Translations under genes and position numbers: made by a program
Notes under the pieces: generated by a model
What the model saw: only the letters and a program-made list of their open reading frames with translations
Told to the model about the DNA's origin: nothing
The model's database searches: none
Source: Laetmonice hystrix
Taxonomy: Eukaryota
Length of the DNA: 64,000 bases
NCBI GenBank assembly: GCA_965235115.1
Contig: OZ249436.1
Coordinates: 20,400,001 to 20,464,000 of the forward strand
Direction of reading: 5' to 3'
Shown: positions 32,919 through 63,863 of the stretch, in pieces
How positions within the stretch are numbered: the first letter of the stretch is position 1
How the letters are laid out: every line of letters begins with the position of its first letter

Positions 32919-33854
32919 ATGACAGGAGCCATGGAGGGGTCGTCCCCGGACAGCCCTGCCACCCGCCGGTCCCGGACCGACTCCGGTACGGGCGGTGACA
33001 ACACCTCCGACCCGTCCTCAACCCCCACCAGGCGCAACAAACGCAAAATGACGGCCCCCAAGCGGCGCACAGACTTCAGCATCAAGCGATTTTGTCCGGA
33101 GATCTCGGATTCTGTTTCGGACGTCGAGTTGGAGGAGTACGATGACATGGGACCACGAGAGTACGTACCGGACACCCCAACCCCGAGCACACCGTCCCCC
33201 GGCGGTACCTCATCCTCTCCTGATCCCGACGACAGGCTGGCCGCCGCTAGAGGGACACCACTCGCCACGCTTGGCAGGGCACGGGCCACTCCCCTGGGAC
33301 GACACCTGGGCACGGAGGGAAGTGCTGCCACGCCCTTCGGCATGGCACGTATGGACCTACTCGGGGTAAATACCCCGGGACCACACAGTGGTAACATGTT
33401 GCACGGACACACCCCTCATTTGACAGGACATAACCTGAGCTTAGGGCAAATTCCAGAGCACTGCCACCTTGGGGGCCTCCCCCTCCCCAGCCCACCTTCC
33501 CCGGCAGACTCCACATCCAGCATGGCTGATAGCTCTGGAGGGGGTAAGAAAACACGAAAAAATTACAAGAACATGACTCGTGAACGTCGTGTGGAGGCGA
33601 ACGCTCGCGAGCGGAGCCGAGTTCACACGATCTCGGCGGCGTTTGAGTCCCTGCGGCGAGCTGTGCCGTCCTACTCCTACAACCAGAAACTCTCCAAACT
33701 GGCCATCCTACGGATAGCATGTTCTTACATTCTCTCTCTGGCCCGACTTGCAGACCTTGACTATAGCTCTGGTGAGAACTACTCGTTCGCTGATTGCGTT
33801 GACATGTGCACGCGGGTGATACAGACAGAGGGCCGTGCCCGTCGCCGTCACTGA
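32919..33854 (+). CDS. ATOH8: Net/ATOH8 (Math6) family bHLH transcription factor, 311 aa, single uninterrupted ORF
   Basis: KNYKNMTRERRVEANARERSRVHTISAAFESLRRAVPSYSYNQKLSKLAILRIACSYILSLARLADLDYS...FADCVDMCTRVIQTEGRARRRH. The RVHTISAAF helix 1, the LADLDYS motif and the C-terminal C..C...Q.EGR tail are diagnostic of vertebrate ATOH8 and Drosophila Net. N-terminus is Pro/Ser-rich. An alternative start at 32931 has better Kozak context (GCCATGG). Confidence 0.96.
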   Translation: MTGAMEGSSPDSPATRRSRTDSGTGGDNTSDPSSTPTRRNKRKMTAPKRRTDFSIKRFCPEISDSVSDVELEEYDDMGPREYVPDTPTPSTPSPGGTSSSPDPDDRLAAARGTPLATLGRARATPLGRHLGTEGSAATPFGMARMDLLGVNTPGPHSGNMLHGHTPHLTGHNLSLGQIPEHCHLGGLPLPSPPSPADSTSSMADSSGGGKKTRKNYKNMTRERRVEANARERSRVHTISAAFESLRRAVPSYSYNQKLSKLAILRIACSYILSLARLADLDYSSGENYSFADCVDMCTRVIQTEGRARRRH

Positions 33855-34570
33855 GCCGTCCGCCCCGCCCCTGGCCCCCACATACCCCCACACAACCCCC
33901 GCCCTCACAGAGGTCAAGGGGTGGGGCGGCGGCAGCAGCAGCAGCAGCAGCCCTGCTGTGGCTCTCAGGAACAGGTGGGTTTACTTGTCTCTACTCTCCC
34001 AGATCTATGTTGTAGAAGGTGTACACCGGAAGGTGGCGACCCTTGATACACGAGTTGGTATTATGAGATGATACCATCTTGATTTCACGGTTCGCTGCGT
34101 CCCTTGTCATCTTCTTCATCGTCATGGTTACTAAATGGTTTAATCTGTTTTATCCTGTACAACATAACCTTTTAACATGGATAAATACACTTATCAATAG
34201 ATTAGTTCCGCCTCGTTGCATAGTGTAAAGAACGTTAACATGCATATAATTTTTATCAATATCTGTCAAAATACAAATGTAATAGTATTGCAATTTCTTA
34301 TAGCAATATAGATAGAACGCCATGCAGTATAGTATAGAGCTTGCTATGGTTAGTTACAGTTTAACCCCACATCAACCCATTATCAACCAGCTGATAATGT
34401 CAGCTCTACCCTGGAGCTTATCATCGCACATTCTGGTCTGTGGTTCAGGAAGAGTTAAAAAAAACTGCTCGTGAAATATATTATTTATATCAAACCATGC
34501 AGTCAGTGGTCAGCAGTGGACAGGACAACCCCAGAGGGTATGAAGTTTGTCGGACAGTCATCGTCTCACG

Positions 34571-35558
34571 AGTGTTTCTATACATAAGCATCCATGGCGT
34601 TTATAACTAGGACGAGTAACTGTCATAGTGTTTCTATACATGAGCATCCATGGCGTTTATAACTAGGACGAGTAACTGTCATAGTGTTTCTATACATGAG
34701 CATCCATGGCGTTTATAACTAGGACGAGTAACTGTCATAGTGTTTCTATACATGAGCATCCATGGCGTTTATAACTAGGACGAGTAACTGTCATAGTGTT
34801 TCTATACATGAGCATCCATGGCGTTTATAACTAGGACGAGTAACTGTCATAGTGTTTCTATACATGAGCATCCATGGCGTTTATATCTAGGACGAGTAAC
34901 TGTCATAGTGTTTCTATGAGTATCCATGGCATTTATAACTAGGACGAGTAACTGTCATAGTGTTTCTATACATGAGCGTCCATGGCGTTTATAACTAGGA
35001 CATGTAACTGTCATAGTGTTTCTATACATGAGCATCCATGGCGTTTATATCTAGGACGAGTAACTGTCATAGTGTTTCTATACATGAGTATCCATGGCGT
35101 TTATATCTAGGACGAGTAACTGTCATAGTGTTTCTATGAGCGTCCATGGCGTTTATAACTAGGACATGTAACTGTCATAGTGTTTCTATACATGAGCATC
35201 CATGGCGTTTATATCTAGGACGAGTAACTGTCATAGTGTTTCTATACATGAGTATCCATGGCGTTTATATCTAGGACGAGTAACTGTCATAGTGTTTCTA
35301 TACATGAGCATCCATGGCGTTTATAACTAGGACGAGTAACTGTCATAGTGTTTCTATGAGTATCCATGGCGTTTATAACTAGGACGAGTAACTGTCATTA
35401 TGTTTCTATACATGAGTATCCATGGCGTTTATATCTAGGACGAGTAACTGTCATAGTGTTTCTATGAGTATCCATGGCGTTTATAACTAGGACGAGTAAC
35501 TGTCATAGTGTTTCTATGAGCGTCCATGGTGTTTATAACTAGGACGAGTAACTGTCAT
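34571..35558. repeat. 56-bp minisatellite (with 52-bp deletion variants), ~18 copies
   Basis: Unit AGTGTTTCTATACATGAGCATCCATGGCGTTTATAACTAGGACGAGTAACTGTCAT; period measured 34571->34627. Confidence 0.97.
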
Positions 35559-36160
35559 TTTGCCTTTCAATCACGTATTCCAAACCTGCGTCCAATCCAA
35601 TTACAACACCACACTCAATTCGACTCAATCAATGGTGGTCGGCAGACGCGGTCGCTCCCGACGCCGCGAATCCATATTGTATAATTACAAGTCAATTCTA
35701 TCATAATTCAATTTTATCGGCGACGCGCACTTTGAGAGTGAATTCTGGCATCTGGCAGAGTTTGGCAATCGATTGAGAAGATGTTTCGGGAATAATGACA
35801 TGACTGGAGACTCGAGGAGCGGCGGCCGTTGGTTGGTTGTAGGCCCTAGAGTGGTCGGGTGGGTGGGACTGGGGGGTGACACGTACGGGCACTTGTCAGC
35901 GACAGACGTAAGCCACGAGTGCACCTGAATGATCTGTAAAAGAGCACCCCTGGGGGTTTGGGGGTACAGATTGTCAGGGGGTGCGATAAGGGGGTAAAAC
36001 GAGGGTGGGGAAGATAACTGAGAGTGAGAGTCACTGAGTGTCTTCAGCAAGGGCGTCTCACTAGTTGTGTTTCAATTCCGAGATTTAGACATTCCTCATA
36101 ATATGAAAGATTGTTCAACATTTTATTGTTCATCTGCTTTTGCTATTTTCACAGTTTTGC

Positions 36161-36341
36161 AGCCACACTCGCTGTTTCAAGTATGTACATACTGTATATG
36201 CAAGTATTATGATCGTACAAGCCACACTCGCTGTTTCAAGTATGTACATACTGTATACCCAAGTATTATGATCGTACAAGCCACACTCGCTGTTTCAAGT
36301 ATGTACATACTGTATACCCAAGTATTATGATCGTACAAGCA
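36161..36341. repeat. 59-bp tandem triplication
   Basis: AGCCACACTCGCTGTTTCAAGTATGTACATACTGTATA... at 36161, 36220 and 36279. Confidence 0.95.
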
Positions 36342-36486
36342 TGCATGGACATGCGACCCGCACGGAACCTGACCGGTCAGTATATCCTTGCCGAGTGGTC
36401 ATTGAAACCGTGTGGTTATATACTGCAGCACGCACGGCCAGGTGTTCGTTCACTTCACAGAGATGACAGGTGCTCATGTTGGATAC

Positions 36487-38744
36487 AATACACCGAGCCC
36501 ATCCCTGGCCGTGTATAGACACATCAAACAGTGTAACGGGGCCGGAATACACCGATCCCATCCCTGGCCGTGTAGACACATCAAACAGTGTAACGGGGCC
36601 GCAATACACCGAGCCCATCCCTGGCCGTGTATAGACACATCAAACAGTGTAACGGGGCTGGAATACACCGAGCCCATCCCTGGCCGTGTAGAGACAGATC
36701 AAACAGTGTAACGGGGCCGGAATACACCGAGCCCATCCCTGGCCGTGTAGACACATCAAACAGTGTAACGGGGACGGAATACACCGAGCCCATCCCTGGC
36801 CGTGTAGGCACATCAAACAGTGTAACGGGGCCGGAATACACCGAGCCCGTCCCTGGCCGTGTATAGACACATCAAACAGTGTAACGGGGCCGGAATACAC
36901 CGAGCCCATCCCTGGCCGTGTAGGCACATCAAACAGTGTAACGGGGACGGAATACACCGAGCCCATCCCTGGCCGTGTAGAGACACATCAAACAGTGTAA
37001 CGGGGCCGGAATACACCGAGCCCATCCCTGGTGGTGTAGACACATCAAACAGTGTAACGGGGACGGAATACACCGAGCCCATCCCTGGCCGTGTAGGCAC
37101 ATCAAACAGTGTAACGGGGCCGGAATACACCGAGCCCGTCCCTGGCCGTGTAGGCACATCAAACAGTGTAACGGGGACGGAATACACCGAGCCCATCCCT
37201 GGCCGTGTATAGACACATCAAACAGTGTAACGGGGACGGAATACACCGAGCCCATCCCTGGTCGTGTAGACACATCAAACAGTGTAACGGGGCCGGAATA
37301 CACCGAGCCCATCCCTGGCCGTGTAGAGACAGATCAAACAGTGTAACGGGGCCGGAATACACCGAGCCCATCCCTGGCCGTGTAGGCACATCAAACAGTG
37401 TAACGGGGCCGGAATACACCGAGCCCATCCCTGGCCGTGTAGACACATCAAACAGTGTAACGGGGCCGGAATACACCGAGCCCATCCCTGGCCGTGTATA
37501 GACACATCAAACAGTGTAACAGGGCCGGAATACACCGAGCCCATCCCTGGCCGTGTAGAGACACATCAAACAGTGTAACGGGGCCGGAATACACCGAGCC
37601 CATCCCTGGTCGTGTAGACACATCAAACAGTGTAACGGGGCCGGAATACACCGAGCCCATCCCTGGCCGTGTAGGCACATCAAACAGTGTAACGGGGCCG
37701 GAATACACCGATCCCATCCCTGGCCGTGTAGACACATCAAACAGTGTAACGGGGCCGCAATACACCGAGCCCATCCCTGGCCGTGTATAGACACATCAAA
37801 CAGTGTAACGGGGCTGGAATACACCGAGCCCATCCCTGGCCGTGTAGAGACAGATCAAACAGTGTAACGGGGTCGGAATACACCGAGCCCATCCCTGGCC
37901 GTGTAGACACATCAAACAGTGTAACGGGGCCGGAATACACCGAGCCCATCCCTGGCCGTGTAGGCACATCAAACAGTGTAACGGGGCCGGAATACACCGA
38001 GCCCGTCCCTGGCCGTGTATAGACACATCAAACAGTGTAACGGGGCCGGAATACACCGAGCCCATCCCTGGCCGTGTAGGCACATCAAACAGTGTAACGG
38101 GGACGGAATACACCGAGCCCATCCCTGGCCGTGTAGAGACACATCAAACAGTGTAACGGGGCCGGAATACACCGAGCCCATCCCTGGTGGTGTAGACACA
38201 TCAAACAGTGTAACGGGGACGGAATACACCGAGCCCATCCCTGGCCGTGTAGGCACATCAAACAGTGTAACGGGGCCGGAATACACCGAGCCCGTCCCTG
38301 GCCGTGTAGGCACATCAAACAGTGTAACGGGGACGGAATACACCGAGCCCATCCCTGGCCGTGTATAGACACATCAAACAGTGTAACGGGGACGGAATAC
38401 ACCGAGCCCATCCCTGGTCGTGTAGACACATCAAACAGTGTAACGGGGCCGGAATACACCGAGCCCATCCCTGGCCGTGTAGAGACAGATCAAACAGTGT
38501 AACGGGGCCGGAATACACCGAGCCCATCCCTGGCCGTGTAGGCACATCAAACAGTGTAACGGGGCCGGAATACACCGAGCCCATCCCTGGCCGTGTAGAG
38601 ACACATCAAACAGTGTAACGGGGCCGGAATACACCGATCCCATCCCTGGCCGTGTAGAGACACATCAAACAGTGTAACGGGGCCGGAATACACCGAGCCC
38701 ATCCCTGGCCGTGTAGACACATCAAACAGTGTAACGGGGCCGGA
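36487..38744. repeat. 57/59-bp minisatellite, ~39 copies, with a 1156-bp higher-order duplication
   Basis: Unit AATACACCGAGCCCATCCCTGGCCGTGTAGACACATCAAACAGTGTAACGGGGCCGG. The variant pattern recurs at +1156 (ORF starts 36627/37783 and 36859/38015). Confidence 0.97.
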
Positions 38745-40162
38745 AACCACTCACATATTATTGCCGTCAGATTTATGCCTCTGACATTTTGTCTACAAAT
38801 TCGATCAATCCTACGAGGGTTTCCTGACTATGCAGGATTTCGTCACAAGGAATAATGACATTTACCCGTGAAGTCGGGAATACAGGTTGGGTTCAAACTC
38901 TACACTGAAGAGAATATGAGTGTAACGGTAAAGCTGTAATGTCCTGTGCAGGTGGCGGTTATAGGTGTAGATGGGTGGTCGTTACGATGTCTGGGTATGG
39001 GAGATCCAGGCCTCATCATGTGATCCCTCACACAGTGACAACCATCCATTGAAGGTTACTCATGCTGGTCGGACCGGGCCCAGCACGGGGGTCGGTGGTC
39101 TCTGTGTAGACAACCCGGCAATCTGACCGTGCCTCCAGATGTTCACCGACCGGACGGGAGGAGGGGCCGGGGAAGGGGCAGGCAGGGGGTAGGAGCGGGG
39201 ATACCTGGGGATGTTGGGCTGCACTGGGTGAACGGGGATTAGGTTGTCCGTCAAGAAGTGGTGAAAGCAGCTGGGAATGCTGGCCCCGCGTTGCCCCCGC
39301 CTTCCCCAGACTCGACTATTGGGCGTGGGTAAACTAAACTCGACACCATAGACTCGGGCATACATACATACATACTACATGTGGAGCGGGGGGTCGGGTT
39401 AGTGGTGGCGTGAGGGTTGGCGGCGTCAAGGGGTGGGGTGGTACGTGGCGGGTTGGGAGGCCGGGGTAGACAGGATCCCCCCCCCCCCGATCATACCCGC
39501 TGTGTCCCGCCAGCCCACCCGTACTTTGATCTGATCTCAGTCAGGCTTACCGCCGCCCAGATGGCCAACCTGCGCTATCTGCGGTTAGCAAACAAATCCC
39601 CTCAAACCGCTGACATTTGCCACGCTACGGGAGTATACGCTACTCTCCACTACTCGGAACAGGTCCTGACTGTCTGACTGCCTGACTGGCCGCTAATATA
39701 CACACGGTGGGGGAGACACCCTGCCCACGTCGTCAGGTAGAGACAGGTGACTACGTGTAATTAGGCGTCCCCAGGTGCAGGACGCCAGTGTTGTCACGCA
39801 TCCTCCCTGATGGAGTTGTCGATGATGTAAAAAAAGAGAGAGAGAAAACCGTCCATTCTTCTGCAAAGTTCGCCCACCACCACGCGCGTCTGACGTAAAC
39901 CGGGAGTGCTCGTGGACAGAAGGTTCGGGCATGCGTGATTCCGAACACGGCCCGCCACAATTCTCCCTCAGGGGACAACCATGTCATCAGGAACTCTTTG
40001 CGTGCCATCTCTTCTGATCTCTGATTCTACCCCAACCCCACACCCCACACCCCACACCCTCCACTCGAAATTAACAAATCCTAACCAAGAAAAATATTAC
40101 TTAAGTGTCAGAAGGCAGGTAGGCCCATTATTGTGATATTGTTTCAGAGAAATGAAATTAAA

Positions 40163-40164
<2 letters not shown>

Positions 40165-40228
<64 letters not shown>

Positions 40229-40324
40229 GTCTGTCTCTCCCTCTCTCTCTATCTCTATATATCTATCTATCTCTATATCTCTCTATCTCTATATCTCTAT
40301 ATATCTCTATCTATCTATCTCTAT
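40165..40324. repeat. Compound (CT)n/(CTAT)n microsatellite
   Basis: Direct reading. Confidence 0.95.
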
Positions 40325-42354
40325 CTTTTTCTGAGATCATGCAGCGAGACTAGACAGAAGAGATATAGCCCTGAACGCATGAACAAGTACCTACAAACAC
40401 GAATAAATTTTGTTATCCTTATATTTATTTTCCTACTTATATTCAAACCGTCTCACATACAGATTCCAGTCCTAGTAATGCTCCAAGGGGTACAATGTCT
40501 GCCGATCAAACCTGACTTTGATGGGCGGGGAGACGGGAGTAACGGTGTACTGTATCTAATATCGGCTGTCAGACCTAAGGCAAGCGTATAAAGCCAAGCA
40601 AAGCTGTTCTGACAGCAGTATTACACATTGTTGAAAACCCCGTCTTAAGTCGACTTATTTCACACGTGGAACGAACGCCGGCACTTGGCAGATGTACTTG
40701 GCGGCCTATCTGCCCCCTCGGGAGGCAAAACGTCCCAGTCATTCCACCGGTGACCCGTGTCTCCCAACTCGACGCTTACCCCCTCCGTCATAGCCGACAG
40801 CGTGTCCCGTTTTTACCCCCAAACACCCCACAACACTTTCACCCCATTTTCATACGCAGCACTGCCAAGCATCACATGCCTCATCTGGGCACTGGCGTAT
40901 GTGTACTCTTGTTGTTTGGACAAAAAGGTGATTGTCTTGGTAGAAAAACAGGCGACGTGAAAGGCAATGACAAGTTGTTTGGTTGGAAGTGTCGCTGGCG
41001 CAGGTTGAGCTGGGGCGGCAAGTCGTGGTGTGTGTGCAAATTACGGCTGTGGCCAGGTGTGCGCCGGTGGGCCGCCGGGCCGGGTACGGCGGCGGTTGGG
41101 GGGGGGGGGTTCAGTGGCGGCGGAGGGAGGTTGTCGGAACAGCTGGCCGGCACAGACCAGCCGGGTGTGGGGTTGGGATTTGGCGGTGGCCACTATTTTG
41201 TTTGTAACTCGATCACTTTACGAGATCTTAAGAAAATACACGAACGCAGGTCGAAAGGAATCCGAGCGAGGTCAAAGATGCGGCACACACAGATCTACAT
41301 GTACAACAAGTGCAATTTTTTTCACCCTTTTTTATAGGAAAAAAACATTCTTTATATTTTTAATGGCTTATTTTGTATAAGTTCACGTGGGTCTAGAATG
41401 AGTTGTGCGTTCGGTACCACCCCCCCCCCCCACCCCCTACCGTCTCATCCCACCCCACCTGCACACCGACAGGAGTCCACCTGTCAACCTGCCCCCGGCC
41501 CCCTTTTTTAAAAGCCTGTTTTCGCCTTCCTTTCACAAGGGTGCCACCGAATGAACATAACTTCTCTTCCGACCACCTCCGGTATATATAGTGGAATACT
41601 TTTATTTATTTCACTTTTCCATTGTCGATTGCTATTTAGGTGCTTTACCAGTTTATGATTATTTTACCACAGCTATATTTTATGTTTTATGGTCTTCTAT
41701 ATTTAACAACGTTTATAATGATGAAAGTAATCAGTTCTTTTATGTCAGGAAAAGGAAACACAATCAGTGCCGAGAGAATTGGCACCTATTCACCCCACTA
41801 TACCTTGTATTATAGATAGCCTAGTCTGATACTAAGAACCCTCTATACGTACAGGTGTATGGGCATAGTTTGTGATCGTAAAGCTCTGTCGATGAGAAGA
41901 TAGCCATATCCGCAATAATAACTTTAACAGTATATGAAGATGCGGGGTCTTACTGTTCATGTTTGTTTGAGAGAGTTTAAGGCTTGAGAACCTTGGATGT
42001 ATGTTTGGGAGGGTAGGGTGAGCACAACGTCCTAGGGGGTTTCCCGTTCGTTCTTTATGGGGGATGACCCCAAGGGTCACGGGTGACTGAGAGGGTGGCG
42101 GCCGGGTTGCCCAAGGTGTTAGCCGGTCGACGAGCCCGCCCCTGGCGGCTGGAGAATGCCGTATAGCGTATCATCTGGCTGAAGTGGCCGGTAGAAGGCC
42201 AATCCCAACTCTCCCCGGTCGTGTCAGGCTCGACTGGTGCGGCAAACTGCCAGACGTCCGCCAGCTGTTCAACCCGCGCGAGGTGAAAGTGTTGCGCACC
42301 CTCCTTCTGATGAACTCCTTCCCTACCTCCCCCCGCCCCCGCCTCAACAGACGA

Positions 42355-42741
42355 TCTCTCTCTCCGCCTCTCTGTCTCTCTCTATCTATGTCTCTGTCTG
42401 TCTCTCTCTGTCTCTATCTGTCCCTGTCTCTCTCTGTCCCTCTCTGTCTCTCTCTCTCTGTCTCTCTCTGTCTCTCGCTCTCGCTTTCTCCTGTCTGTCT
42501 CCCTTTCTGTCTCTCCGCCTCTAGCTGTCTCTCTCTGTCTCTCTCACTCCCGCTCTCGCTCTCTCTCTCTCTCTCTGCCTCTGTCTTTCTCTGTCTTTGT
42601 CTCGCTCTCTCTGTCTCCGTCTTTCTGTCTCTGTCTGTCTCTATCTCTGTCTCTTTCTATCTCTCGCTCTCTCGCTCTCTGTCTCTTTATCTCTCTGTCT
42701 CTGCCTCTCTGTCTCCGTCTCTCTTTCTCTGTCTCTCTCTC
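42355..42741. repeat. Degenerate (CT)n/(CTGT)n polypyrimidine tract
   Basis: Direct reading; source of the Leu/Ser-rich spurious ORFs. Confidence 0.95.
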
Positions 42742-43966
42742 CTCCTGAAGCGTATAACTCGAGCGATAAACCTCCCAAGGTCACAATCCTAATTGCCACA
42801 ATACACTCTTTAAATGTACTGAGTAGGCGTACTACCTGTCTGGAAGTTGCCGCGGTTCGTCGCCAGAAAGTGTTCTGATCTTGGGCGTGGGGGCAGCGAG
42901 GGGCGCTGTGCATGCCCTCAGGGTCTGACAGAGGCTGACGTCACTGCTGGACAACGATGGGTATGTTGTCTGTTAGGATAGGGGCGGTATATCTCACCCT
43001 ATGCGCCCACCCTCGACAGCTGAGCAGCGCGGGCATGGCGAGCCAGCCCCACCCTATATACCAGACGGTGGGCTAGTTAAAATACAACCCCAGCCAGTGC
43101 AGAACAGGTGTTGTACGTTCTGCACCTAATGCCAACCACACCCACCTGGCCAACGCGTGTGAAGTGAAGGGGCGAGGAAGATGCTCGGGGGCAAAGGGCC
43201 GCAAATATCTGCCGTCGCTTATCGGTCGGAGCCAAAGTGAAGCACAGTTACCAGTATACCAAACGTCGGAATCTCACAGTCGTATGGGTCCCATTAAGGA
43301 GATGTAGGCTTGCCATTGTGTATCTTCTCTTTTTATACGCAGGCCTTTGATTATGGTCCGGGTATTTGTAAAGAGATTACATTGCCTGGTACATGTGTAA
43401 GGGGTGTTGTGTTTTAACGAAGGAATTTTACAGGCCATGCTATACTTCGGGTCGCTGAATCGCTAAATCCCCACCATCTTCATTATGCTTTACCCGAGCA
43501 ACGAGACTATAGAATTATCTAAAGGGTCAGACTAGGGTTTGCCATGCAGTGTTTATCCAGTGGAATCTGTCAACTCCCATCCATGCAGGAACCCTGTTTC
43601 CCTAACGAGATCCTTCAACATCAAACGATTGAGTTGTAGGATTAATCTACTTTTTTCCTGACTGGCCATCCCTGTTTCTGGAAATGGGTTCCATCCTTTA
43701 ATCTCAAAGTCACAGTAAAAAAATTCTAGATATTTCAACGGTTGCCAATTGCTAGTAGCTAATACTGTTCGGAGGTTACTGTATGGGAATGGGTATGGAA
43801 ATGGGGTGAGGGTGGAGTGGGTATGGCAGTGGGGTGAGGGTGGGAGTGGGGGTCATGAGTACATTGGACTTAATGCAGTGTCAATGCCTCGTCTAGGTCC
43901 AGCACTAACCTGACACAATGTTAATGACGTTCGCCTCTCATTAACGTCATATTACTGGTCCCTGCT

Positions 43967-44155
43967 GAAAAATTGTCAGCTGTAATCTGACAAACTGGGA
44001 CGAGGGGTTGAGATGTCGTCAGGGGGAGGGGGAGGGGTGAGTCCCATGGTGTCATGTCACTCGGCAGAAATTGTCAGCTGTAATCTGACAAACTGGGACT
44101 ACGGGTTGAGATGTCGTCAGGGGGAGGGGGAAGGGTGAATCCCATGGTGTCACTC
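43967..44155. repeat. 98-bp direct tandem duplication
   Basis: AATTGTCAGCTGTAATCTGACAAACTGGGAC... at 43971 and 44069. Confidence 0.9.
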
Positions 44156-51399: not shown

Positions 51400-54300
51400 C
51401 CCTGGCCTAACATAGCGGACGCGTCTGTTAGACAGGGGACCAGGCTACTGCTATCTTCAGGTATAGATGTTTAGGATAGTCGTATGCCGCTAACAATATG
51501 AGACAACGGCTGCATGGTCGATCAGGTAAAAACAACAAAGGGATGACAAAGTGATCTCAACATTCCTCGAGATTGACATCTTAGCGGTGTGCTGAGGTGT
51601 CAAACGCGAGGTGCTTGTCTCTTCCAGCGATGGCCGAAAATTGATTGCTACTTTTGTGAAGGTTGGCTTGGCTGCCGGTGGCATACAATACTGAAGACTA
51701 TTTTTGCTATGATCGCAGACAGTTTGTGGTTTAATCAATGCCCTCGAATCCTACAAAATGGTCCGTTCGCACCTGTTAACTTGGAGGTCCTATTCCGGAA
51801 TCCTACTTGGCGACAAGAGAGGCACGACGAAATCAGTCTCTGCTGAGAGATGTTTCGAGTCCATTAAATGTTTCCCCCGTCATACAAATATAACAGACCC
51901 CTAACACCTAAAAAAAACATTGAAGGGGCCATTTATAGCCAGCTCACTCAGTCTGGACAAACACCTGCAGACACAGGCTGTACACCCCTAATATATGTGT
52001 ATCCTAACCGGGATAGACCCTGCGAGCATATGCTCACACTTATTAATATTTCAACCTTCGTTCGGAGACTGGTGCCAAACTGACAAAACAGATGCGTGGC
52101 AGGGGTCGTCAATATAGGAGCCGTCGGTGTCCCACTACCTAATGCCCGATAATCATTCTCCACGTCGGGCACAGCAATCGGCGGGGCGTGCGGCGCGCCA
52201 CACCGCGGCAGTCGGCAGAACCTCGCGTGTGGCGGTAAACACACCGACATGTTACGATGGCGTGTCGTCTGCTGGGAGATGCCGTCATAGTGGGCGCCAT
52301 GTGGACGGATCCCAACCCTCCATAGACCTGTCACTTTACTGGAACGACTCTTGAATAAACTTGCCGCGGTCCTGCCCAACGTGAGCATCAACAAATACCA
52401 CCTGGAGACGAAAGGAGTAATTAGTACGGATTTGTTACCATAGCAACGGGGCATCCGACTTGGTTTGAGTCGATGGAGGACGTCGCTCCAATAGAGCACG
52501 CTCGGTAACATCTGGCGACGGGCGTCCGAGAAAATGAATGTCTGCAGCAGCTAACGGCAATTATGTTTTTCTCCCCCAAACACAATATGCTCCCATGTGT
52601 GCCTAGTTGTTATGGATTGAAACGCACATTACTGCATGAGGCAGACGACAGCCAGCGTTCCCCGCCAGCCCCACCACGCGAGCATTCTCCCAGAATCTGT
52701 TTCTATAGAAGTGGATGACCTCTATAGGCCTACCTTCTATAGAAAGTGTTCTCCGTTCGTCAATAGTATCACATGAGGCATTCGCTTGTGAGTGTTCCTT
52801 ACCTTTTAAGAAGCAGTGACCTACGGTCTGGAGAAAATTGTAGGAAGAAAAGCTCACGTAGCAAAAATAATATAATAGAGATCTGTAGAGACTCATCCCT
52901 TTACAGCAAAGATAATGAAGTAATAAATAACACCGAACGTCCTTATCAGTCTAGTCACATGAACATGAAACCATGCTAGTTGTTTCAATTTAAGAAAGGA
53001 CGATTGAAAAATCAATATCTCAACAAATCACACCAAACGGTTCCGTTTGCTTATACACGTATGCACTGTCATGGGCGATGTAATATAAACAATGATTGGC
53101 CAAACGTTGTTTTAGTCAGACAGTCACGAAGTCAGACAGTCAGACAGACAGTCAGTCAGACAATCAATCAATCAGTCAATCACAGACAGTCAGAGAATTA
53201 TACTGACTATAGGACCTTTAAATAACGTTATCCCGAGCGTCCATTCTATACCAAAGTATCCGCAAACGTTCCAGATGTTCAGGGCAGGCCGAGATCCTTT
53301 GACATTCAAACTGACTTGGATCGTGACGACACAGAAGGCAGACGTTGGTTTGCCGCCCTTGATCCACCGATCGATGCTGAACGGAGCCGAACCAAGCGAA
53401 CATATACGTGTTAGCACCATCGCCGTCCAGCCAGCCACCCGCAGTTTTATCGAGAATAACGCGGGTTGATCTGCGCAACAGGGCTAGCACGATTCTAACG
53501 TAACCCGCGCTCTAACGTATACCTCATCAAATACCTGCTCGTTTTCTCCAAACATTATGATTTGTCGGTACCCACAAGCGACGATACGTGGTATTCTAGG
53601 ATGTGTGAGATGTGTTCACCCTTGGAACGCGCTGGGAACAGTTGAATCATGAACAAATATTTTGTTTCAGATTGATCCCTTTTTTATTCTCCTTGTTTTC
53701 AATTGATGCACTTTTCCATGATTTACATATAGTTTGGTGTGTTATCACTATTCAATCTCGTTTACTTTGTTTGTCATATTGTCACGGTGGGAATCCCACT
53801 TCTATTAAATTTTTCTGTACATTGACCACGTCATCAATCATCAAATCACATGACAGCCGCCTGTCCTCCAGCCATTCATAATACTCGCTATTCTCCACGT
53901 TACCATCATAGAATATAGTCTACCGCTTGTAACTCATAACACATCAAGAGAATAAGCAAGAAAATGTGGGCCAGAAGGCATCTGATTTGCCCGGCTGGAG
54001 CCTCACCCATCACATGGTTGTGGTAGCGCTGGTCGGTTGATAATGCCTGGGGGCCGTGGCCAGTCCACTCCATCTTGCATGCCAGTAGCAAACCTAAAGT
54101 GGGGTGGCCAGGTAGTGACGGCACGCCGGCATGCATGGGGCCCTAACCCCCACCGACCTCGCCCAGTAGCCTCCTCACCCTCGATCAATACCCATAATTA
54201 CAGCCAGCCATAACTTGGGCGGCGATCGATGGCCGTTTTGACGGCTCGCACCAGCTGCCGCCATATGCTGGCATCTGGCCCTGGGCGCAAATTTAATTTG

Positions 54301-54499
54301 GGTAACAGCAGTAATGTGCAAAAGGCTTTTTAAAGTGCCTTCTGTTCTGAGTAGGTTTGGCGGGTGTGCTTGCTGTCGCTCTGGTTGCAGCCGGTTAATG
54401 GTGTCTACGAGAGACAGAAAGCAGACGCGGCCCATTCAATATGGGCCGGGGCAGGTGTGGGTCGCTCGGCCGCCGGTAGTCCCGACCCGACGCTGCCAG

Positions 54500-54630
54500 C
54501 CTGACTTCCGACCGCACGGTCTCCGGCTTCCTCGGCCAACCGAGGTGAACCGGAAGTGTGGTGGTCCCTAACCGGAAGTCGAGCAGCGCACTCTGACAGG
54601 ATACGCTCCAGTCTCGTGGGCGAGATCTTA
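54500..54630 (+). promoter_or_regulatory. ETS-motif cluster, promoter-like GC-rich element
   Basis: ACCGGAAGT at 54549 and 54571, ACTTCCG at 54504, and a YY1-like GCCGCCAT at 54257, all in a CpG-rich patch. Confidence 0.4.
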
Positions 54631-55205
54631 CCGAACAATAATATATCATCTTCGATCACAGTTAGTTTAGAGAGTTGCTAATGGCCACAGACACGGTCTA
54701 AATGTTTCTCATGGCAGAGGCATGCCACTTCAATCCGTAGTATGTAGCCTAGATCTATAGGCCTCGAGTATGAAGTCGGTGGAGTCATTAATCCAGGTCT
54801 ATAGGCCTATATCCGAACAACATTAATGGATTAATTACATCTGAACTTCTGACCTTTCTTTCACTTGATCCTTTAAAAAAATGTGGAATTATGGTTACCT
54901 CTGTTGGCCTAATATGATGTACAACTATAGGCCTACATAATAAACCCACCTTGACAGATATAGGTCTAGACTGTCTAGATTCTATAGTTGTAGCACTGAT
55001 GTCTGACTTAATATGTGTACATGATCTATTTCATTATTCTGTGTTTCAGGTTGGGTCCGAGTCCAGTAAAACGAAATGTCTGATTGAAGGACGCCACCTT
55101 GGCCGACGTTTGGGTCCGGAGTGGCGACGACGAGGGACGTGCCCCATGACGTTACGTCGTGTAGACTGTGATTCGTGGTTTTGACGTCAAGACGGGTCTG
55201 AGTGC

Positions 55206-55347
55206 CTGCCGCTGGACGTCTGCCGCAGGACGCCTGCCGCTGGACGTCTGCTGCAGGACGTCTGCCGCAGGACGTCTGCCGCAGGACGTCTGCCGCAGGA
55301 CGTCTGCCGCGGGACGTCTGCCGCAGGACGTCTGCCGCGGGACGCCT
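55206..55347. repeat. 14-bp minisatellite GACGTCTGCCGCAG, ~10 copies
   Basis: Direct reading. Confidence 0.94.
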
Positions 55348-58300
55348 GAAGAAACGTCTAGAGTACTGCTATACCCCGTGGACACCGTTGAGGGCTGACG
55401 GAATAGATACGATAGACTATAATACTTGAACGTCATATAATAATAAGACATCACATCGTTCGACTGCAGCCGGCCTTCGTTTTACTTCATCGAGCGACGT
55501 CTCACGAGATTGACGACTGGGCTCAAATGTCAACTGTATACGCTAATATCTTTGATGTCAGATCGCTCACACACTTCATGCAGCGTATATCTCATCGTAC
55601 ATTAGTTTGATTTTTTTTATTTCAACACGCCCTGCGTGACATAGACCTGCGCCAGAATTTAATTGTGGCTTCTATAGTCATAGACATATAGGCCTATAAC
55701 ACTGAACACAATTGATACCTTAAATAAAGCAGTTATATAATACAGCAGCTTTAACAAGCCGGCAACAGTCGTTTACCTTACAATAATATTAATTTCTGAT
55801 GCCATGTAGCTACCGAAACTCAAAGTATTCCGGGACTGTTTGTGAATTACAATGAACCATATAGATCTATACGTCTTTTACGTAGCATTTGTTTTGAATG
55901 TTAAATGGCATACTTATCAGGAACCATTATAGGTCTATAATATGGCCTATGGCAAACGTCAGGATTCATGGGTGTAAAGTTTAACCATTATTGTATGGCT
56001 CGAAAATTTAGCTAGAATCTCAGTTTGCAAAATGCCAGTATTGTCGCTTCGTCTTGGTGCTGAAGGAAAAGTAACATCCATTCGAGGGAGGCGTGTTACT
56101 GTAAGAGTTTGAGTGGAACATCCCTACATTGAGTCTTTGTGAATGGGCCTTGGAATGGAAATGTTAATCATCTAATTACTAATCGCGTGGCTTAAAATAA
56201 AATAATAATGTGCACAGACTCTTGATATAAAGGCCAATTAAGAACAGGGAAAATCCGAATCATATTCATGCGTGGGACCATTTCTTTCTCTAGAAATATC
56301 AAGACTTTTACCAAGCACTGCTTTATATATTCCAACGGCTAGCTGGCCTGGCTGGAATATTTTGGTGGAAAACAATTGTATCCGGCACAATCTTCATCAG
56401 TCACTATAGATCTACATCGAACGGTAACTGTTCATTATTATTCTGATGCAACTTTATTCATGTACTTAAGATGTTATTTTCTTCTTTCCTTATATGTATA
56501 CCGGCTTCTTCGTCCACGCCATACATTGAAAGAAGCATGCTGTAGAATTGAAGATTAGCTACATGTATATATAGAGAGTATAAGGATGCTATCTTACCGA
56601 TATAATTCGGTGTATAATTATTCATGACTTCATGCAGATGACTGCCGTCCAGCAGGATATAGAACTGTTTAATTCCCACGATTGACAGATCAATCTACTA
56701 TAATAGTGTCGTATATCTGTCTATGTGAAATGTATATGGGGCGAAGCCAAAGAGCAACCACGGATAACAACATTCAATGTAAGTGTCGACCATCTTGGCG
56801 TGTAAAGGTGAAAATATAAAATTAGGGGCCAAAACGTTATAGTATATATAGTAGGCCTAAAGTAGGCTGACGCAGGAAAATCCATCGTGGGCTCATGAAT
56901 TACGTAGTATTTTCGGAAGTCCCAGAATCTGTTTGACTTGTCTATGATACTGAGAGGAAGAAAGTAGAATGTTTATTTTACAGGTAGTCCTCTCGTAATG
57001 ATTATATACAGAGGTGCTTTGTAGATTGCCAAACCATTAGAAGCGTGTAGCAAGCATACCATTCACTCTCGTTGTAAACAGTGTTTACCTTGAGAGACTT
57101 GAATAAAACATCCGCATTAACTGTGAGGTAGGAAAGATTCATGATAAGCTGTTAATGAACGAATGTTTAATTAATATTCAGTAATTGTAAATATGACCTA
57201 GACTACTTGAAGTAGGCGAGTGTATAAATAAAAACAGCTTTATTAAAGTAACTAATCATGTTAGGAATGAAACGGACCGACAGTGTTGTCAACAGTGACC
57301 CACGAATAACACCTTCAACTTAGTGTTTGTCAGTAATACAGGGTGGCCCATAAAAAACGCAACGGCGTACTTCAGCAAAGTAAAGGCCATCTTCATCTTG
57401 GATGAATGAAATAGACATGACCATTATCCAGAAACACTGGGGGATCCAAATCCATTTTTTAGGTGCCCCCCCCCCCCTTATCAAAATCCTGGATCCCCCA
57501 CTGCATGCCATGCCTAATTCATTGTTCAATGACACCAAAGGGATTCAGTATGGCGTCCTGGAGAAAGAGGTATTCTGGGATTGTGCTAGCATGATTAGGG
57601 AGATAGTTGGGTCAGAGGAAAGCTGGCTAAGCCTCAGTACACCACGGAGGAGACCTTGACAGAGACCGTAGAGCGTCCAGACTTTGCTTCACAAAAATGT
57701 CTTATCAAAACCACCCCACCGAATCCATAGTTCTTGATGTCATTCTCCTTCACACAAAAGTCCCCAACCATTCAAATCAATGGTTTAAGTCCTCATCTTG
57801 CAGACGTATACTGTTACGTTTCGGGGGGGGCACCCTGTATAATAATGCCGAAACTTTACACTTTTATCTTTAGAATTTTTACGCTGTACGTGCTAAGTGT
57901 GTTAAAATGTCACAGGTACATGCATAGTTTTGTGTACATATGCTTCAAAGTGATAGTTTATGAATGAATCGGTCCCTAACGTTGTAGAGATCACCATACA
58001 GTGTAGTAATACATATACTAATAGGTATATTATAGAGTCCGCAGGCCATTGTTTTATAGGGCTATTATGTTGTTCCAGCTCCGTTGACAAAGCTATAGTA
58101 AGATGACTATTTTTATACAGATCTTATATCATTGTTTCAAGAATTCCTGTTATCTATGTTGTTGTTGTTCTCGTTCCTGTGATGTTTCCATGAAGACAAA
58201 TGCTATATATAGTAAAAATATTAACGGTCAACAGTTTGAAAGATAAGGCAAATGGTGAGATCTACTTAAGAGAATTTTATAGTTTGTTCAATATACTGTG

Positions 58301-58522
58301 CGAAATAAAGGTGACGAGTGTATGAAAATATAATTCGTGACATTCTTTGGCTTCAGAACATTCCGCTGTCCGCACCTGTCCTCAAGTTTGAGGGTAACCG
58401 TAACAAATAAAGACCATATCCTAACTATGAGAAACATGTAGGGATTAGGTTCTTAACCCCCAGGGGGATCTAGATCGGAACCTACCAAATGGGTCGATGG
58501 GACACCCTTCCATGGATTACGA

Positions 58523-58843
58523 GGCCCTGTTCCGGCTAGTTATGTACAATAGGAAATTATGTCCGCAAACATCAGCTAGATGTGCCCGGAGAAATTGACA
58601 TGTCCGCAAATATCAGCCAGATGTGTCCGACACTGGACTGCTACATCAAGCTGATATTTGCGGACATATCCGGTTTACCGGACACAGCTAGCTGATATTT
58701 GCGGATATATCCGGATTACCGGACACAGCTAGCTGATATTTGCGGACATACCCGGATAACCGGACACAGCTAGCTCATGTTTGCGGACATATCTCCTATC
58801 GGACATAACTAGCCGTTCGGACGTATCTAGCCGGAACAGGTCC
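58523..58843. mobile_element. MITE with 17-bp TIR and internal ~41-bp subterminal repeats
   Basis: GGCCCTGTTCCGGCTAG ... CTAGCCGGAACAGGTCC (1 mismatch). Internal GCTGATATTTGCGGACATATCCGG...GGACACAGCTA repeats occur in both orientations. No clear TSD. Confidence 0.8.
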
Positions 58844-59025
58844 TGTAACTGCAGTTCATTTTCCAACATTTGATCGATCGTTGCTTTGTTTATTTTCTAT
58901 GTGGGGGTGACCTTTGTAAAAAGGCGATTCGGGGAGAGGGTTGCAAATGAAACTGTGTGTAATTGACTGGAAAATTAAACAACAGGTCTCTCTTTTTTCA
59001 CTGAGTTGACGAAGGAAGATGCCCG

Positions 59026-59117
59026 TCCCCACCCCCACCCCTGCCCCCGCCCCGCCCCGCCCCGCCCCGCCCCGCCCCGCCCCGCCCCGCCCCGCCCCGC
59101 CCCACCCCCACCCCCGC
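59026..59117. repeat. (CCCCG)n pentanucleotide run (tandem GC boxes)
   Basis: Direct reading. Confidence 0.93.
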
Positions 59118-62100
59118 TCCCTCTCCTCTAAGATCCACGGTTGGTCCTCCGACTGGCCACCTTTATCCCAGCAATTGCAGCGTAAACTGCAAACTACGCC
59201 CACAGTATAACTGTTGTACGTGATGAGGTATTGCTTTGGTTCAGTCAATCAAAGGTCTGTTTCAAGAGACGAGTCTCGGAACGGTTGTTCTCCTTGTAGA
59301 CCATAGGTCCTGTCTATCGTAATTTACCCAACTTTATGATCCCCCAGATGTGACATTTGTCTGATATCGGAAGTAGATTAGAGCCCAATACATCACGTAT
59401 CTACCGGGACCCAGGATATACTCGTAGAGCTAATTGATAAGAAGTACGCAACAGTACGGTTCAGCCCCGCTAAGATGTCGAGTGGGTATACAGGGCCAGC
59501 GACAGGCTGTCCCCACCCACGACGTGTGATCCTTGGCTTGAACTAGTACGGGAGGCAATTCGATCCACGGCTTTCTCCGTCAGATTAGAGACTAACTAGA
59601 GCAGGTGCGATCTGAGCGATGGACGGGCTCTGTGAATGTCTCCCGCCCAATTACTGTGAAGGCAGACGTCTGGCGAGCAGGCGTCAGGCTTTGTGGGCGG
59701 TGGCGCCCGCCAGTTCTCCGAGCGCGCCTCACATCTGGGTACAGCCTCTGCACGGCGAACGTCGGCGTCATCACTTGCAGCAAACAGCACACGCTCGTCG
59801 ATGTGCCACGCACATGTGGCATTGTTAAAGCACCTGCAATAATTCGACACAAAAATACCATTCCCTTTCAGAGTGCCGAATGGTACGGATTTTGTCTCTG
59901 CATCAGAAGCGTCATTCCCATCTGGAGATTTTTGACTGAATTGAGATTACATCGTTGACTAACAAATGATGAACGGAGCGTTGGTTTGACTTTTTGCGGT
60001 TGAGAGAAAGTGTGCGTATGTCAGGCCTTCTTTTTCTTCTTCTTTCTTCTTCTTATCTTTATTTTTGTGTATTTCAGACATGTGTTTCAGAAGTGTTTTT
60101 GAGTTTAGAAGGCGGGGGGCATTTGACTTCTGCAGCGCGAGCTTCAATTTATAGATTTAGATAGAGATCTGGTTTTGGCAGACATGGTTTGAATGCTCCC
60201 GTGCCGGTGCGAAACTTCTCTGCTCCATGCAAAATGACAGCTATTATCAGACATACTAATGGTCCACATGATCAAGGTCCATTCGGTCCGCCGGTGAAAG
60301 CCGACAAAGAACACAATCGTTGACGGAAGCTACAGGAGCGCTTGGCATGACGGGTCGGGTCAGTGGGATTCGACTCGGCCATTAGCCCTTCACATAGCCT
60401 TCACATTGAGCATGCACGCGCTGAAAGCCGCATGGCTCTCTGCCCACAGCTTCTATAGTCTGTCCTCTCTCTCTGCCCAGGGGACATTCAGTACACCACT
60501 GTCTGATCTGAACTCATTTGCACTGTGGTGATCAGAGGGTCATCAGAGGCAGGTCGCTCGCAGTGGCTAGTAAAATTGGATATCATGGGATCAGAATAGT
60601 TGGCAACCAGTAAACTCTAAATGTCATTATTTATCATATATATTTTGCACACCTGACATCGATGAAACGATCTCTCAAGGAACTCGTTTAAAACCAGAAA
60701 ACAATCAGCGATTAATTCTGATTCAGAACCTTGTTAACGATTAAAATTATCCCGCTGTTGTGGCCCGTTAGGCAAGTCGTATGATGTCAAATAGAAATGA
60801 CAAAATATTTAATTCTGTAGTCAGCATCGCCTACAAAATCTTCTAGACCGTAAAGAATAAAATTTCATTTTCACGTCCAGCCATTTTTCGGATTAAAGCC
60901 ACTGGATGCATTTTTACTTACTCCTAATGACTGGACTTGTGTAAAAAGACAGGTCGCAGGTATATGTTTCTCACTGATCTTCACCAACATGAACGTTTGA
61001 TTACCAATGGTGAGTTCAATAAGTAGCAAGAAAATGTCGCATGCATGATTCTAGCAAAATGTAAATACTGTAAACCTCACACATCTGCCCAAAGACACAA
61101 AAAGGAGACACTCAGTCGTGCTCAGGCATGCATCTAATAAAATGAAATAACGCAGGTGTATGAAGTAAAACGTATTGATATGTTCTCGGCTAGGTTAGAC
61201 GAACACTGTCACTGTTTGAGCGCCAATTACCGCGTGTGTATGCGAGGCGTACTCTAGAGGGGGGGGGGGTCGATCAATGGTGTTACCCTTGGCAGCAATG
61301 GCCCTCTGGCTGGCTGGATCGTGGGGCCAGCCTCCCATAAAGACATGTATAACGATATGCCAGATGGTTACAGACATCGATCGGGATCGTTGATCGATGG
61401 ACTCGTTTACACAGATCAATGATAGTTTGCCTGGTGGCTATGTGGGGACACGACCATTGTGACGTTATCACTGACACTTCCCTGTCAGCTTTACCTGGGT
61501 ACCACTCCGGTCAGGCAATGTGAACATGCTGGCAAATAGAACGTGGTAATTTGTAGTCCAAATACAGAGATGCCCTTGGCCCTTTTCAAGGAATGTCACA
61601 TTTTTAATCTTTCCGATCATGCCTTAGAGATCTAATTACTATACGCTTCTTGCGATAATTTTTTTTAAAATCTTATTGCAACTCCCCCGCCGATGCTAGA
61701 CTCTAGAGGTCTATAAACACCAGGATGACCGTGTCTTCTGATCATTAAATTATCAAACCAATCCTGCCTCCATCCTGATCTCCTACCTCTCGGTGGGGTA
61801 GGCCGATCTGGAATGTTGGTCCGAGTACGGCACGCAATGCATACCTTCATATTATTCTTCCCCTTGACCCCCGGGTTCACGATCATTGGTTTACAAAGCA
61901 TGAAGGCCCATGTCCCCATATAGGCCATTGTCCTTTTATTTTACTGTGATTTCGAGATTGAAGAATCGGACCCATTTCCAGATACAGGGAAGGTCAACCA
62001 GTAAAGAGTGAAATTCCGCCATTAAATCTAAAATCGTATGTCAGTCGCAATGATAATCGCCTTAGAGGAGGCCACGAGAAAGGGGACCATTTCGTTATAC

Positions 62101-62250
62101 TACTAACAGCGACAACGCGCTGATATTTCAAACGCCAGAGCTCAAGATGTCATCGTAAATTTAAAGAGCGAATATCGCGTTCTTTCACGCCCATTCGCAA
62201 GCAAATTTATTATCTCATTTTTACTGTCTTTGTGTACACGAGTTACTCAG

Positions 62251-62256
62251 TTTATT
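62251..62256 (-). terminator. Candidate polyadenylation signal of PBLD (second at 62206-62211)
   Basis: AATAAA on the minus strand ~135 nt after the TGA. Confidence 0.45.
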
Positions 62257-62391
62257 TGGTCATTACGGTTTTTCTTAACTAGGAAGTTTTTTAAGATATA
62301 CTTTCAAGAACATGAAGATGTAGTCAGTCTAGTTGAGTACATTCACATACAGAGTACACAGCCGACGTCCTCTCCATGGATTCAGAAAGCC

Positions 62392-62513
62392 TCAGTTGAC
62401 GGGTAAGGTTATAGTCCCCCGGAGAACGATGACCGCCTGCCCACTCACGTCCACCCTGCCATCATTGGTCAGTCGGACTCGGAGGTCTCCACCCCGCGCC
62501 GAACACTGGCGGC
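62392..62513 (-). CDS. PBLD: PBLD/PhzF-like protein, last coding exon
   Basis: Acceptor ...CCCTTTGAAG|GC. Encodes (G)RQCSARGGDLRVRLTNDGRVDVSGQAVIVLRGTITLPVN*, matching the Q.S.RGG.L...GRV.I.G.A..V..G C-terminus of PBLD/PhzF. Not in the ORF track. Confidence 0.95.
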
Positions 62514-62731
62514 CTTCAAAGGGAGTCAAAGCAAACACACGTCCATCACTTGGTCAGCGAGTAAACTCCACCAAGCGGGGCGACCGGGAAAGACGAAGAC
62601 AAGAAAGAGAGGAGAAAGAAAACTAAAGGTCTTCTTAGAACTGCAATAACAGGCACTGAACTGTTTTTATGTGAAGTCGTTTTAGTGATTTATTTAGAAA
62701 AGATGGGGGCCTTTCGTAAGATAGAACTTAC

Positions 62732-62794
62732 CATATAATTTATTCTTGTTCAGCTCTTTTGACCAATATCCACCAAGGACTGTATGTGCCGAAC
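62732..62794 (-). CDS. PBLD: PBLD/PhzF-like protein, penultimate coding exon (63 nt, phase 1-1)
   Basis: TTGTTAG|GT TCG GCA CAT ... TAT G|GTAAGT. Encodes (G)SAHTVLGGYWSKELNKNKLY(G), completing the EDPVTGSAH active-site motif. Confidence 0.95.
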
Positions 62795-63115
62795 CTAACA
62801 ACCAACGTTAGATGATACAACACATTCATAGAGTGACATTCCTAAATCTATTGGCGTTGTAATACTAATCTATCATTACTAGTCAATATGTTCTCAAATA
62901 TTTCTTCATTCATTATTTGTACACCTAAAGTTATTTTTCTTTCTTCTCGACAACTAAGCTGAACTAGTCTACTTTAGGATATTTTGCACTCTGTAAAGTT
63001 AAGGTTCGTTCTTGCAAGAAGATTATCCTTGGGCTAACTTGCGTCAAGAGTGGTGCATGGAGGAGTAGGAAAAGCAGGTCTATAGCAAGTTTGTTGTTCA
63101 TAGAGTGACACCTAC

Positions 63116-63309
63116 CGGTGACGGGATCCTCAGCTATGCCGACCCAGGGCCCAAAGTAACGCGACAGGAAGTCATACTGCTCGCCATTGTGGTCCGTACC
63201 TCCAGTTTCCTCCTCAGCCTTCACAGTCACTATAACCCCTTTCACTTGACCAGTGTGAGAACACGTAACAAACTTGTCGATCTCTGGTCTCATTGACTCA
63301 AGGTCCTTT
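63116..63309 (-). CDS. PBLD: PBLD/PhzF-like protein, internal exon (194 nt, phase 2-1)
   Basis: TTTCCCTTTGGCAG|A AAG GAC ... GTC ACC G|GTAGGT. Encodes KDLESMRPEIDKFVTCSHTGQVKGVIVTVKAEEETGGTDHNGEQYDFLSRYFGPWVGIAEDPVT(G); DF.SRYF.PW.G..EDPVTG is the PhzF/PBLD signature. Confidence 0.96.
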
Positions 63310-63774
63310 CTGCCAAAGGGAAAACAGTATAAAAAAGAAAGGTATAGTCTTGTCTAACCTGACGCTCGGCACACAGGGTGTGTATCATGCCTCGATAAAG
63401 ACGATGTACTGTCCCCACAGGGAACTAGGGGAGACCCCCTATATCCCAATCTAATGCTATATGCTTGGTAGACGCACATAGATGCTATTCAGTGACGTTT
63501 TCTCTATAAGGTACTTCCGATTGATCAAAACATGGAATAATTAATAGGCCTATACTACAAGTAATTAGGCCTAATATAGGCCTACTAACCCTAACCTTAT
63601 AAACTTACTATAAAAGGCTTTAATTTTGATTGGTACCACCCTGTAGTTGTTAACTGCCTGAAGTATTCCGACATTGATCATTTCCCAGATATATAGGCCT
63701 ACACCCTCGGGAATACCTGTTCTGTAATATCATGAATGATTATCATGGCGGGTTTTAGTTTGTCCTTGTCCTAC

Positions 63775-63863
63775 CTGTGTGTCCCATCCGTCAGTCTGAC
63801 CAACAGTTTGCCGGTAGATGGCGACAATTGGACATCCTGAATGGTTCGGTCGCCAGCCACAGC
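63775..63863 (-). CDS. PBLD: PBLD/PhzF-like protein, internal exon (89 nt, phase 0-2); upstream exons lie beyond the window
   Basis: TTTTATTGGCAG|GCT GTG ... CAC AG|GTAGGA. Encodes AVAGDRTIQDVQLSPSTGKLLVRLTDGTH(R), matching the PBLD ..VQD...SP.T.KLLVRL segment; phase joins the next exon. Confidence 0.93.

Follow-up and report, generated by a model that had tools for sequence, protein, structure and literature searches.

Net/ATOH8 and PBLD as neighbouring genes in Laetmonice hystrix, and the probable antiquity of the pair

Two convergent genes in a gene-poor window

A stretch of 64,000 nucleotides from the genome of Laetmonice hystrix (GenBank assembly GCA_965235115.1, contig OZ249436.1, positions 20,400,001 to 20,464,000 of the forward strand), hereafter the window, contains a bHLH gene of the Net/ATOH8 family and, on the opposite strand, the last four exons of a PBLD gene. 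The two genes are convergent, with a gap of 28,537 base pairs (bp) from stop to stop, which confirms the initial annotation in taking Net as the first coding gene past the 3′ end of PBLD, at about 28.5 kb. The age of this pairing, and what may have kept the two genes together, are the subject of the present analysis.

The Net gene (32919..33854, forward strand) is made of one coding exon, from an ATG at 32919 to a TGA at 33854, and encodes 311 amino acids, among which the Pfam HLH domain is matched at residues 223-274 (E 1.6e-17) and the bHLH comprises residues 223-277. This bHLH is identical to named vertebrate ATOH8 proteins at 45-47 of 55 positions and to arthropod net/atoh8 at 44-47 of 55, and together with its conserved C-terminal extension it shares 44-53 of 55 positions with the Net/ATOH8 rows that have the extension; the match to NeuroD1 reaches 54 bits. 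Towards the N-terminus, residues 40-59 (33036-33095 of the window) form a basic motif followed by FSIKR, which is kept in lophotrochozoan Net proteins and whose basic part is also present in ambulacrarians and Strigamia; the FSIKR segment presumably resembles the eh1 Groucho-binding motif. Among the best 120 of 1475 matches, all the named Net proteins are lophotrochozoan, several of them annotated as ATOH8-like, and the top one is that of Owenia fusiformis (48%). The genome falls among the lophotrochozoans and is probably that of an annelid. A manual count on the supplementary sequences of Bao et al. 2017 (PMC5381572) gave 52 of 57 identical positions with Capitella Net, and for the bHLH only 25 of 55 with Capitella Atonal and 27 of 55 with oyster Atonal2. 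The identity of the bHLH to Net/ATOH8 lies so far above that to Atonal or NeuroD that, on sequence grounds, the open reading frame is a Net/ATOH8 gene, as had been proposed; the trees built here comprised Net proteins only. The gene differs from vertebrate ATOH8, which has three exons (Chen et al. 2011, PMC3150394), in its single coding exon, and both genes of the window are, as far as their letters tell, ordinary orthologues of the Net/ATOH8 and PBLD/PhzF (Pfam PF02567) families.

The PBLD exons lie on the reverse strand at 63775..63863 (fourth from last, 89 nt), 63116..63309 (third from last, 194 nt, with the Pfam PhzC-PhzF match), 62732..62794 (second from last, 63 nt) and 62392..62513 (last coding exon with the stop, followed by poly(A)-type signals at 62256 and 62211), whereas the 5′ half of the gene falls beyond the window. 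Each of the four exons is preceded by an AG acceptor and each of the first three is followed by a GT donor, and the joined frame of 156 codons has only the terminal stop and contains the EDPVTG motif. A contig from run X4 (a run without library record, though this one contig is spliced) joins the exons at the same three introns, of 465, 321 and 218 bp, and extends to about 62290. Past that point the contig carries a loose end of 55 bases with no match anywhere in the window, which may be an allele, a further exon or an artefact. The same run covers an AT-rich, partly repetitive stretch of about 2 kb (55985-57918) at a depth of about 10-45, with zero in the adjacent unique DNA; it is possibly a non-coding transcript or a distant untranslated region (UTR).

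The interval between the genes (33855..62391) holds about 5.9 kb of tandem arrays, among them four of 0.7-2.3 kb, and several interspersed repeats; high-copy ones at 50808-51408, 57419-59221 and 61626-62226 reach a summed depth of up to 40,000, against about 50. When 150 of the 170 stop-to-stop frames of at least 55 amino acids outside the tandem arrays were scanned, none passed the Pfam cut-off and four gave hits below it, and upstream of Net, where 148 of 152 frames were scanned, Net alone passed; this kind of scan is blind to small exons, as the last exon of PBLD itself has no Pfam match. An Rfam scan gave no match. A bHLH profile searched in the six frames of the window matched Net only, so that the claim of no second bHLH frame in the window is likewise sustained. 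Net thus has no recognisable gene within the 33 kb upstream of it or the 28.5 kb downstream.

The pair in other animals

For the comparison across animals, the best 120 protein matches each for Net and PBLD were used, counting only the longest sequence per protein cluster, and the two genes were taken to share a sequence when their source sequences in the same species had an identical size in bp, a test that shows co-occurrence on one sequence and not the distance between the genes. Both genes were listed for 23 species, nine of which share a sequence. Among bivalves the sharing is general (8 of 8): in Mytilus californianus, Mercenaria, Mactra, Mya and Pecten the sequence is a whole chromosome, and in Mizuhopecten (2,561,261 bp), Ylistrum (2,363,085 bp) and Potamilus (1,404,798 bp) it is a scaffold. 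The Potamilus locus tags, CHS0354_019056 and CHS0354_019061, are five apart; on a mixed chromosome with 1000-3000 genes, two genes would stand five gene models apart or fewer by chance in 0.3-1% of cases.

The ninth case is a hemichordate (one of three), Glandiceps, in which Net and one of two PBLD paralogues lie on one sequence of 18.5 Mb. In Saccoglossus, Net is on a scaffold of 128 kb and PBLD on a different sequence, and the comparison for Ptychodera is uninformative, its listed PBLD being the other hemichordate paralogue. Hemichordates have two old PBLD paralogues (P0326 and P0335 versus P0334, P0333 and P0344), and the Glandiceps copy on the Net chromosome clusters with a Saccoglossus copy on a 1.3 Mb scaffold; amphioxus has PBLD duplicates of its own on several chromosomes. 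Lingula has two Net copies, of which the one on the longest sequence was compared, so that its call as shared or non-shared is undecided. Haliotis, Biomphalaria and Elysia were left out, the two proteins having come from different species; among the listed matches only Net was present for Owenia, Liolophura, Tubulanus, Ostrea, Pomacea, Littorina, Babylonia and Nucella, and only PBLD for amphioxus, cnidarians, chelicerates and Lineus.

Scanning metagenome contigs yielded 56 Net loci, one of which, L002 (14.4 kb), has Net at 8552-9472 and, 4.8 kb downstream on the same strand, the first exon of PBLD with its GT donor (E 7.6e-8, Pfam match); no intervening gene was recognised in the 40 longest other frames scanned. 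None of the other 55 loci shows PBLD, most of them reaching only a few kb past Net. The Net protein of L002 forms a separate clade (100/100), apart from the Net of the window and from named molluscs, and belongs to a distant lophotrochozoan; a weak grouping with the clade of the window in a quick tree was replaced by this clade of its own. In another of these loci, L048, an open frame of 674 amino acids without Pfam match (7166-9187) directly precedes, in the same orientation, a Net gene that has introns.

Three lophotrochozoan lineages therefore have Net and PBLD close together, in two different orientations and with four intervening genes at most: none recognised in the window or in L002, and tags five apart in Potamilus. 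We consider it very probable that the pairing, as far as its age alone is concerned, goes back to the common ancestor of the lineage of the window and the bivalves, and the two genes probably shared a chromosome already in the last common ancestor of bilaterians. The eight bivalves, L002 and Glandiceps support the view that the neighbourhood is ancient, against a lineage-specific origin or a mis-assembly.

What may hold the pair together

Upstream of Net, the window carries a short element, B (32468..32576, forward strand), with a core TAGTCAATA at 32524-32532, a GAATTC at 32550 and CATCTG E-boxes at 32542-32547 and 32568-32573. The CATCTG E-box is a site preferred by Atonal, NeuroD and Neurogenin proteins. 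By blastn, element B is matched in L001, L002, L004, L006, L012 and L018, that is, in a Mytilus-like locus (84% over 73 bp) and five others, and a profile made from six protostome rows finds it also upstream of Net in L022, L032, the L016 group and L034, with two Mya-like loci among its hits; in arthropod-like loci the profile did not find it. The L034 locus is brittle-star-like, since its Net is 94% identical to that of Amphiura over the searched region, and its match (3328-3355) is a 25-base part of element B, identical to L002 at 21 bases and placed 325 bp ahead of the start codon; when that 1 kb was resampled 1000 times, no copy reached its score, with an E of 0.0099 over all loci. Element B is a candidate cross-phylum non-coding element, which may correspond to a core promoter or a 5′ UTR. 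A second element, A (32119..32271, forward strand), contains a CACCTG E-box and is common to the L002 clade and, weakly, to L004, but not to the bivalve loci. A further motif (11849-12201), with matches in the L016 group and L007, was rejected as a conserved element because it is a repeat, present four times in L016, where it precedes Net, placed after Net in L007, and forming a tandem triplet in the window. The three tandem copies of this interspersed repeat span 11845-12201, and several copies occur in L016, L019, L021 and L007.

The reading that we favour, to which we nevertheless give slightly less than an even chance as a whole, is that of an old pair under a soft cis-regulatory constraint coming from Net, with the tetrapod ATOH7-PBLD neighbourhood as a separate matter. 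Net is a developmental regulator and PBLD a non-developmental gene, the combination predicted for a genomic regulatory block. As a developmental transcription factor in a gene-poor stretch, Net would make breaks in its flank costly, and PBLD, as the first gene at the edge of that regulatory flank, would be carried along; the link has been lost several times, and the ATOH7-PBLD neighbourhood of tetrapods would have arisen by shuffling within the same ancestral chromosome. The upstream DNA of Net, conserved across phyla, and the gene-poor surroundings favour this proposal, as do, for its tetrapod part, the membership of human 2p11 and 10q21 in one paralogon and the disrupted neighbourhood in gar and teleosts described below; neither a shared promoter nor read-through is needed, since PBLD is flipped in place in L002.

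Several observations weigh against it. A search of 33855-64000 against 83 kb from 23 loci, which extend at most 8.7 kb past Net and include no whole PBLD intron, gave no distal conserved element downstream of Net above background (best blastn 35.6 bits, versus 33.7 for the reversed control), so that the regulatory constraint stays hypothetical. In five of the eight bivalves the shared sequence is a whole chromosome, within which the distance is not given, the three scallop cases are not independent, and the gap of just 4.8 kb in L002 makes for a small flank. None of the four gastropods has both genes on one sequence (a chromosome-level assembly in Patella, scaffolds in Lymnaea, Physella and Aplysia), and the genes are on separate sequences also in five of five echinoderms, two of three hemichordates, Lingula and two fishes; several of these cases rest on fragmentary assemblies, but different sequences in so many lineages imply that any constraint is weak. 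Finally, the position of a break in the gar relative to ATOH7 and PBLD, which matters for the tetrapod neighbourhood discussed below, is absent from the available part of the table of Lamb (PMC8040251).

Two explanations are close rivals of this soft constraint, each of them unlikely when taken alone. In the better placed, the pair is ancient and nothing holds it: the slow genomes of bivalves and annelids would keep neighbours by chance, and inversions would flip genes. The repeated loss in gastropods, echinoderms and vertebrates, the different orientation in the window and L002 and the lack of a distal element above the control agree with such a neutral relic, and the pair does not so far reach the four lineages that Irimia et al. 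require to tell constraint from chance; on the other side, one partner is a developmental regulator, a class enriched in conserved pairs (29.4% vs 19.5%, PMC3514665).

The second close rival, which we rank below the neutral relic and regard as doubtful, extends the ancestral Atonal and Net cluster linked to PBLD that the initial annotation had proposed. The bilaterian ancestor would have had Net, Atonal and PBLD in one block, to which Neurogenin may have been loosely attached, as a remnant of the duplication that separated these bHLH families; lophotrochozoans would have kept Net-PBLD and moved Atonal away, and in vertebrates, after the genome duplications, one copy would have kept ATOH7 with PBLD and another ATOH8, while PBLD might carry bHLH enhancers. 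The age of the Net-PBLD link speaks for it, and two different atonal-superfamily genes beside one enzyme gene are unlikely by chance alone; in both the window and human, moreover, the bHLH gene lies past the 3′ end of PBLD. MYPN and HNRNPH3 flank ATOH7-PBLD in human, and human ATOH8 presumably lies between TCF7L1 and REEP1. Paralogon 14 of Lamb (PMC8040251) holds the 2p11 genes TCF7L1 (85.1 Mb), REEP1 (86.2 Mb) and KDM3A (86.4 Mb) together with 10q21 genes, so that Atonal, Net and PBLD were probably on one chromosome before the vertebrate duplications. In the same paralogon NEUROG3 is 0.5-1.5 Mb from MYPN in three of the four species listed (PMC8040251), a hint of a loose Atonal-Neurogenin neighbourhood, and old clusters of several bHLH families are known to exist (Amber-Neurogenin, NeuroD-PTFa and ASCa-ASCc; PMC5381572).

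The human neighbours themselves are as the initial annotation had stated: on build 36 they map to 69.66 Mb (ATOH7) and 69.71 Mb (PBLD), about 50 kb apart (PMC2883339), and the enhancer deletion 19.2-25.7 kb upstream of ATOH7 includes rs3858145 (PMC7474671), whose position at 69.68 Mb (PMC2883339) places this remote enhancer between ATOH7 and PBLD, outside PBLD. The idea of PBLD as an enhancer-bearing bystander consequently finds no support so far, since the ATOH7 enhancer is intergenic, teleosts have the neighbours separated from the Atoh7 block (PMC7474671), and in the window the visible PBLD introns are short (218-465 bp) and the search described above gave no conserved non-coding match in the interval. 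The human block is also broken in gar: MYPN and HNRNPH3 lie within 0.25 Mb in five tetrapod columns of the Lamb table, its species being taken from chromosome labels, whereas on gar LG5 their positions of 28.7 and 18.1 Mb put them 10.6 Mb apart, and in a second fish column they are 3.1 Mb apart (PMC8040251). The part of that supplement (Lamb 2021, PMC8040251) available to us has no rows for PBLD or ATOH, nor have the Lin 2024 supplements.

Atonal, the third member of the supposed block, did not appear near Net. The table of Bao et al., in its available part, places Atonal on none of five Net scaffolds (Biomphalaria, Crassostrea, Capitella, Lottia and Lingula Net1; PMC5381572); on four of these, which may be short, Net is the sole bHLH gene, and that of Lottia, longer than 4.4 Mb, bears ASC genes and Mist in place of Atonal (PMC5381572). 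Limpets may have lost the Net-PBLD pair, as Patella indicates. The bHLH profile found no Atonal in the window and nothing convincing in the 56 metagenomic loci, where a second bHLH-like frame in L016 and L021 (E 0.04, 25 amino acids) was taken as noise. In L002, moreover, Net faces the 5′ end of PBLD. Of the proposed cluster, the old age of Net-PBLD is supported; the presence of Atonal within it is so far not.

It is very improbable that the adjacency is a mis-assembly across a minisatellite or a peculiarity of this lineage: tandem arrays do separate the genes and no read contig spans the interval (coverage was examined over 46000-64000), but in three runs of a single sample, from which the assembly itself may come, every one of the 30 bins of that region is covered evenly at about 30-70x outside repeats, and the linkage of the same genes in independent genomes, with the low chance expectation calculated for Potamilus, makes such an accident hard to sustain.

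Known systems and significance

No publication on Net-PBLD linkage was found in a search outside which remained the supplements of Irimia 2012 and Lamb 2026, where it might be held; the word synteny is absent from the available part of the Net/ATOH8 paper of Chen et al. 2011 (PMC3150394). The pair marks where to seek Net enhancers in annelids and bivalves, in which Net regulation has been little studied, and through it the arrangement of the atonal superfamily prior to the vertebrate duplications can be tested at little cost. Element B may be one of the rare non-coding sequences that can be recognised in more than one phylum. If the three-gene block were true, a regulatory domain more than 550 million years old would be the ancestor of the human optic-nerve risk interval, and a Net element with an atonal-class E-box, common to protostomes and echinoderms, would still be carried upstream; if Atonal was unlinked, Net-PBLD joins the several hundred conserved pairs already described.

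The human MYPN-ATOH7-PBLD locus at 10q21.3, with its ATOH7 shadow enhancer (PMC2883339, PMC7474671), resembles the window in having an atonal-superfamily bHLH gene tens of kb from PBLD. The gene is there the Atonal-type ATOH7 and here Net/ATOH8, the human enhancer is upstream of ATOH7 whereas the 3′ end of Net faces PBLD in the window, and the human neighbourhood is broken in ray-finned fishes (PMC7474671, PMC8040251). The lophotrochozoan bHLH clusters of Bao et al. 2017 (PMC5381572) are also old linkages of Group A bHLH genes in molluscs and annelids, but they join two bHLH families, and Net and Atonal do not figure among the clusters described there and are on different scaffolds in the table; non-bHLH neighbours are not listed in the available part of that work.

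The closest counterpart is offered by the conserved ancestral microsyntenic pairs of Irimia et al. 2012 (PMC3514665). In comparison with these, and with genomic regulatory blocks, no long introns or conserved elements are seen in the visible part of PBLD, and the pair is close in three lophotrochozoan lineages against a threshold of four major lineages, Glandiceps being at chromosome level only. In those pairs as in Net-PBLD, a developmental transcription factor is separated by no more than four genes from an unrelated gene without a developmental role, in distant lineages, and the orientation is not fixed, as in most pairs that are not head-to-head (PMC3514665). Net-PBLD works, in these respects, like a conserved ancestral microsyntenic pair, a kind of gene neighbourhood already known.

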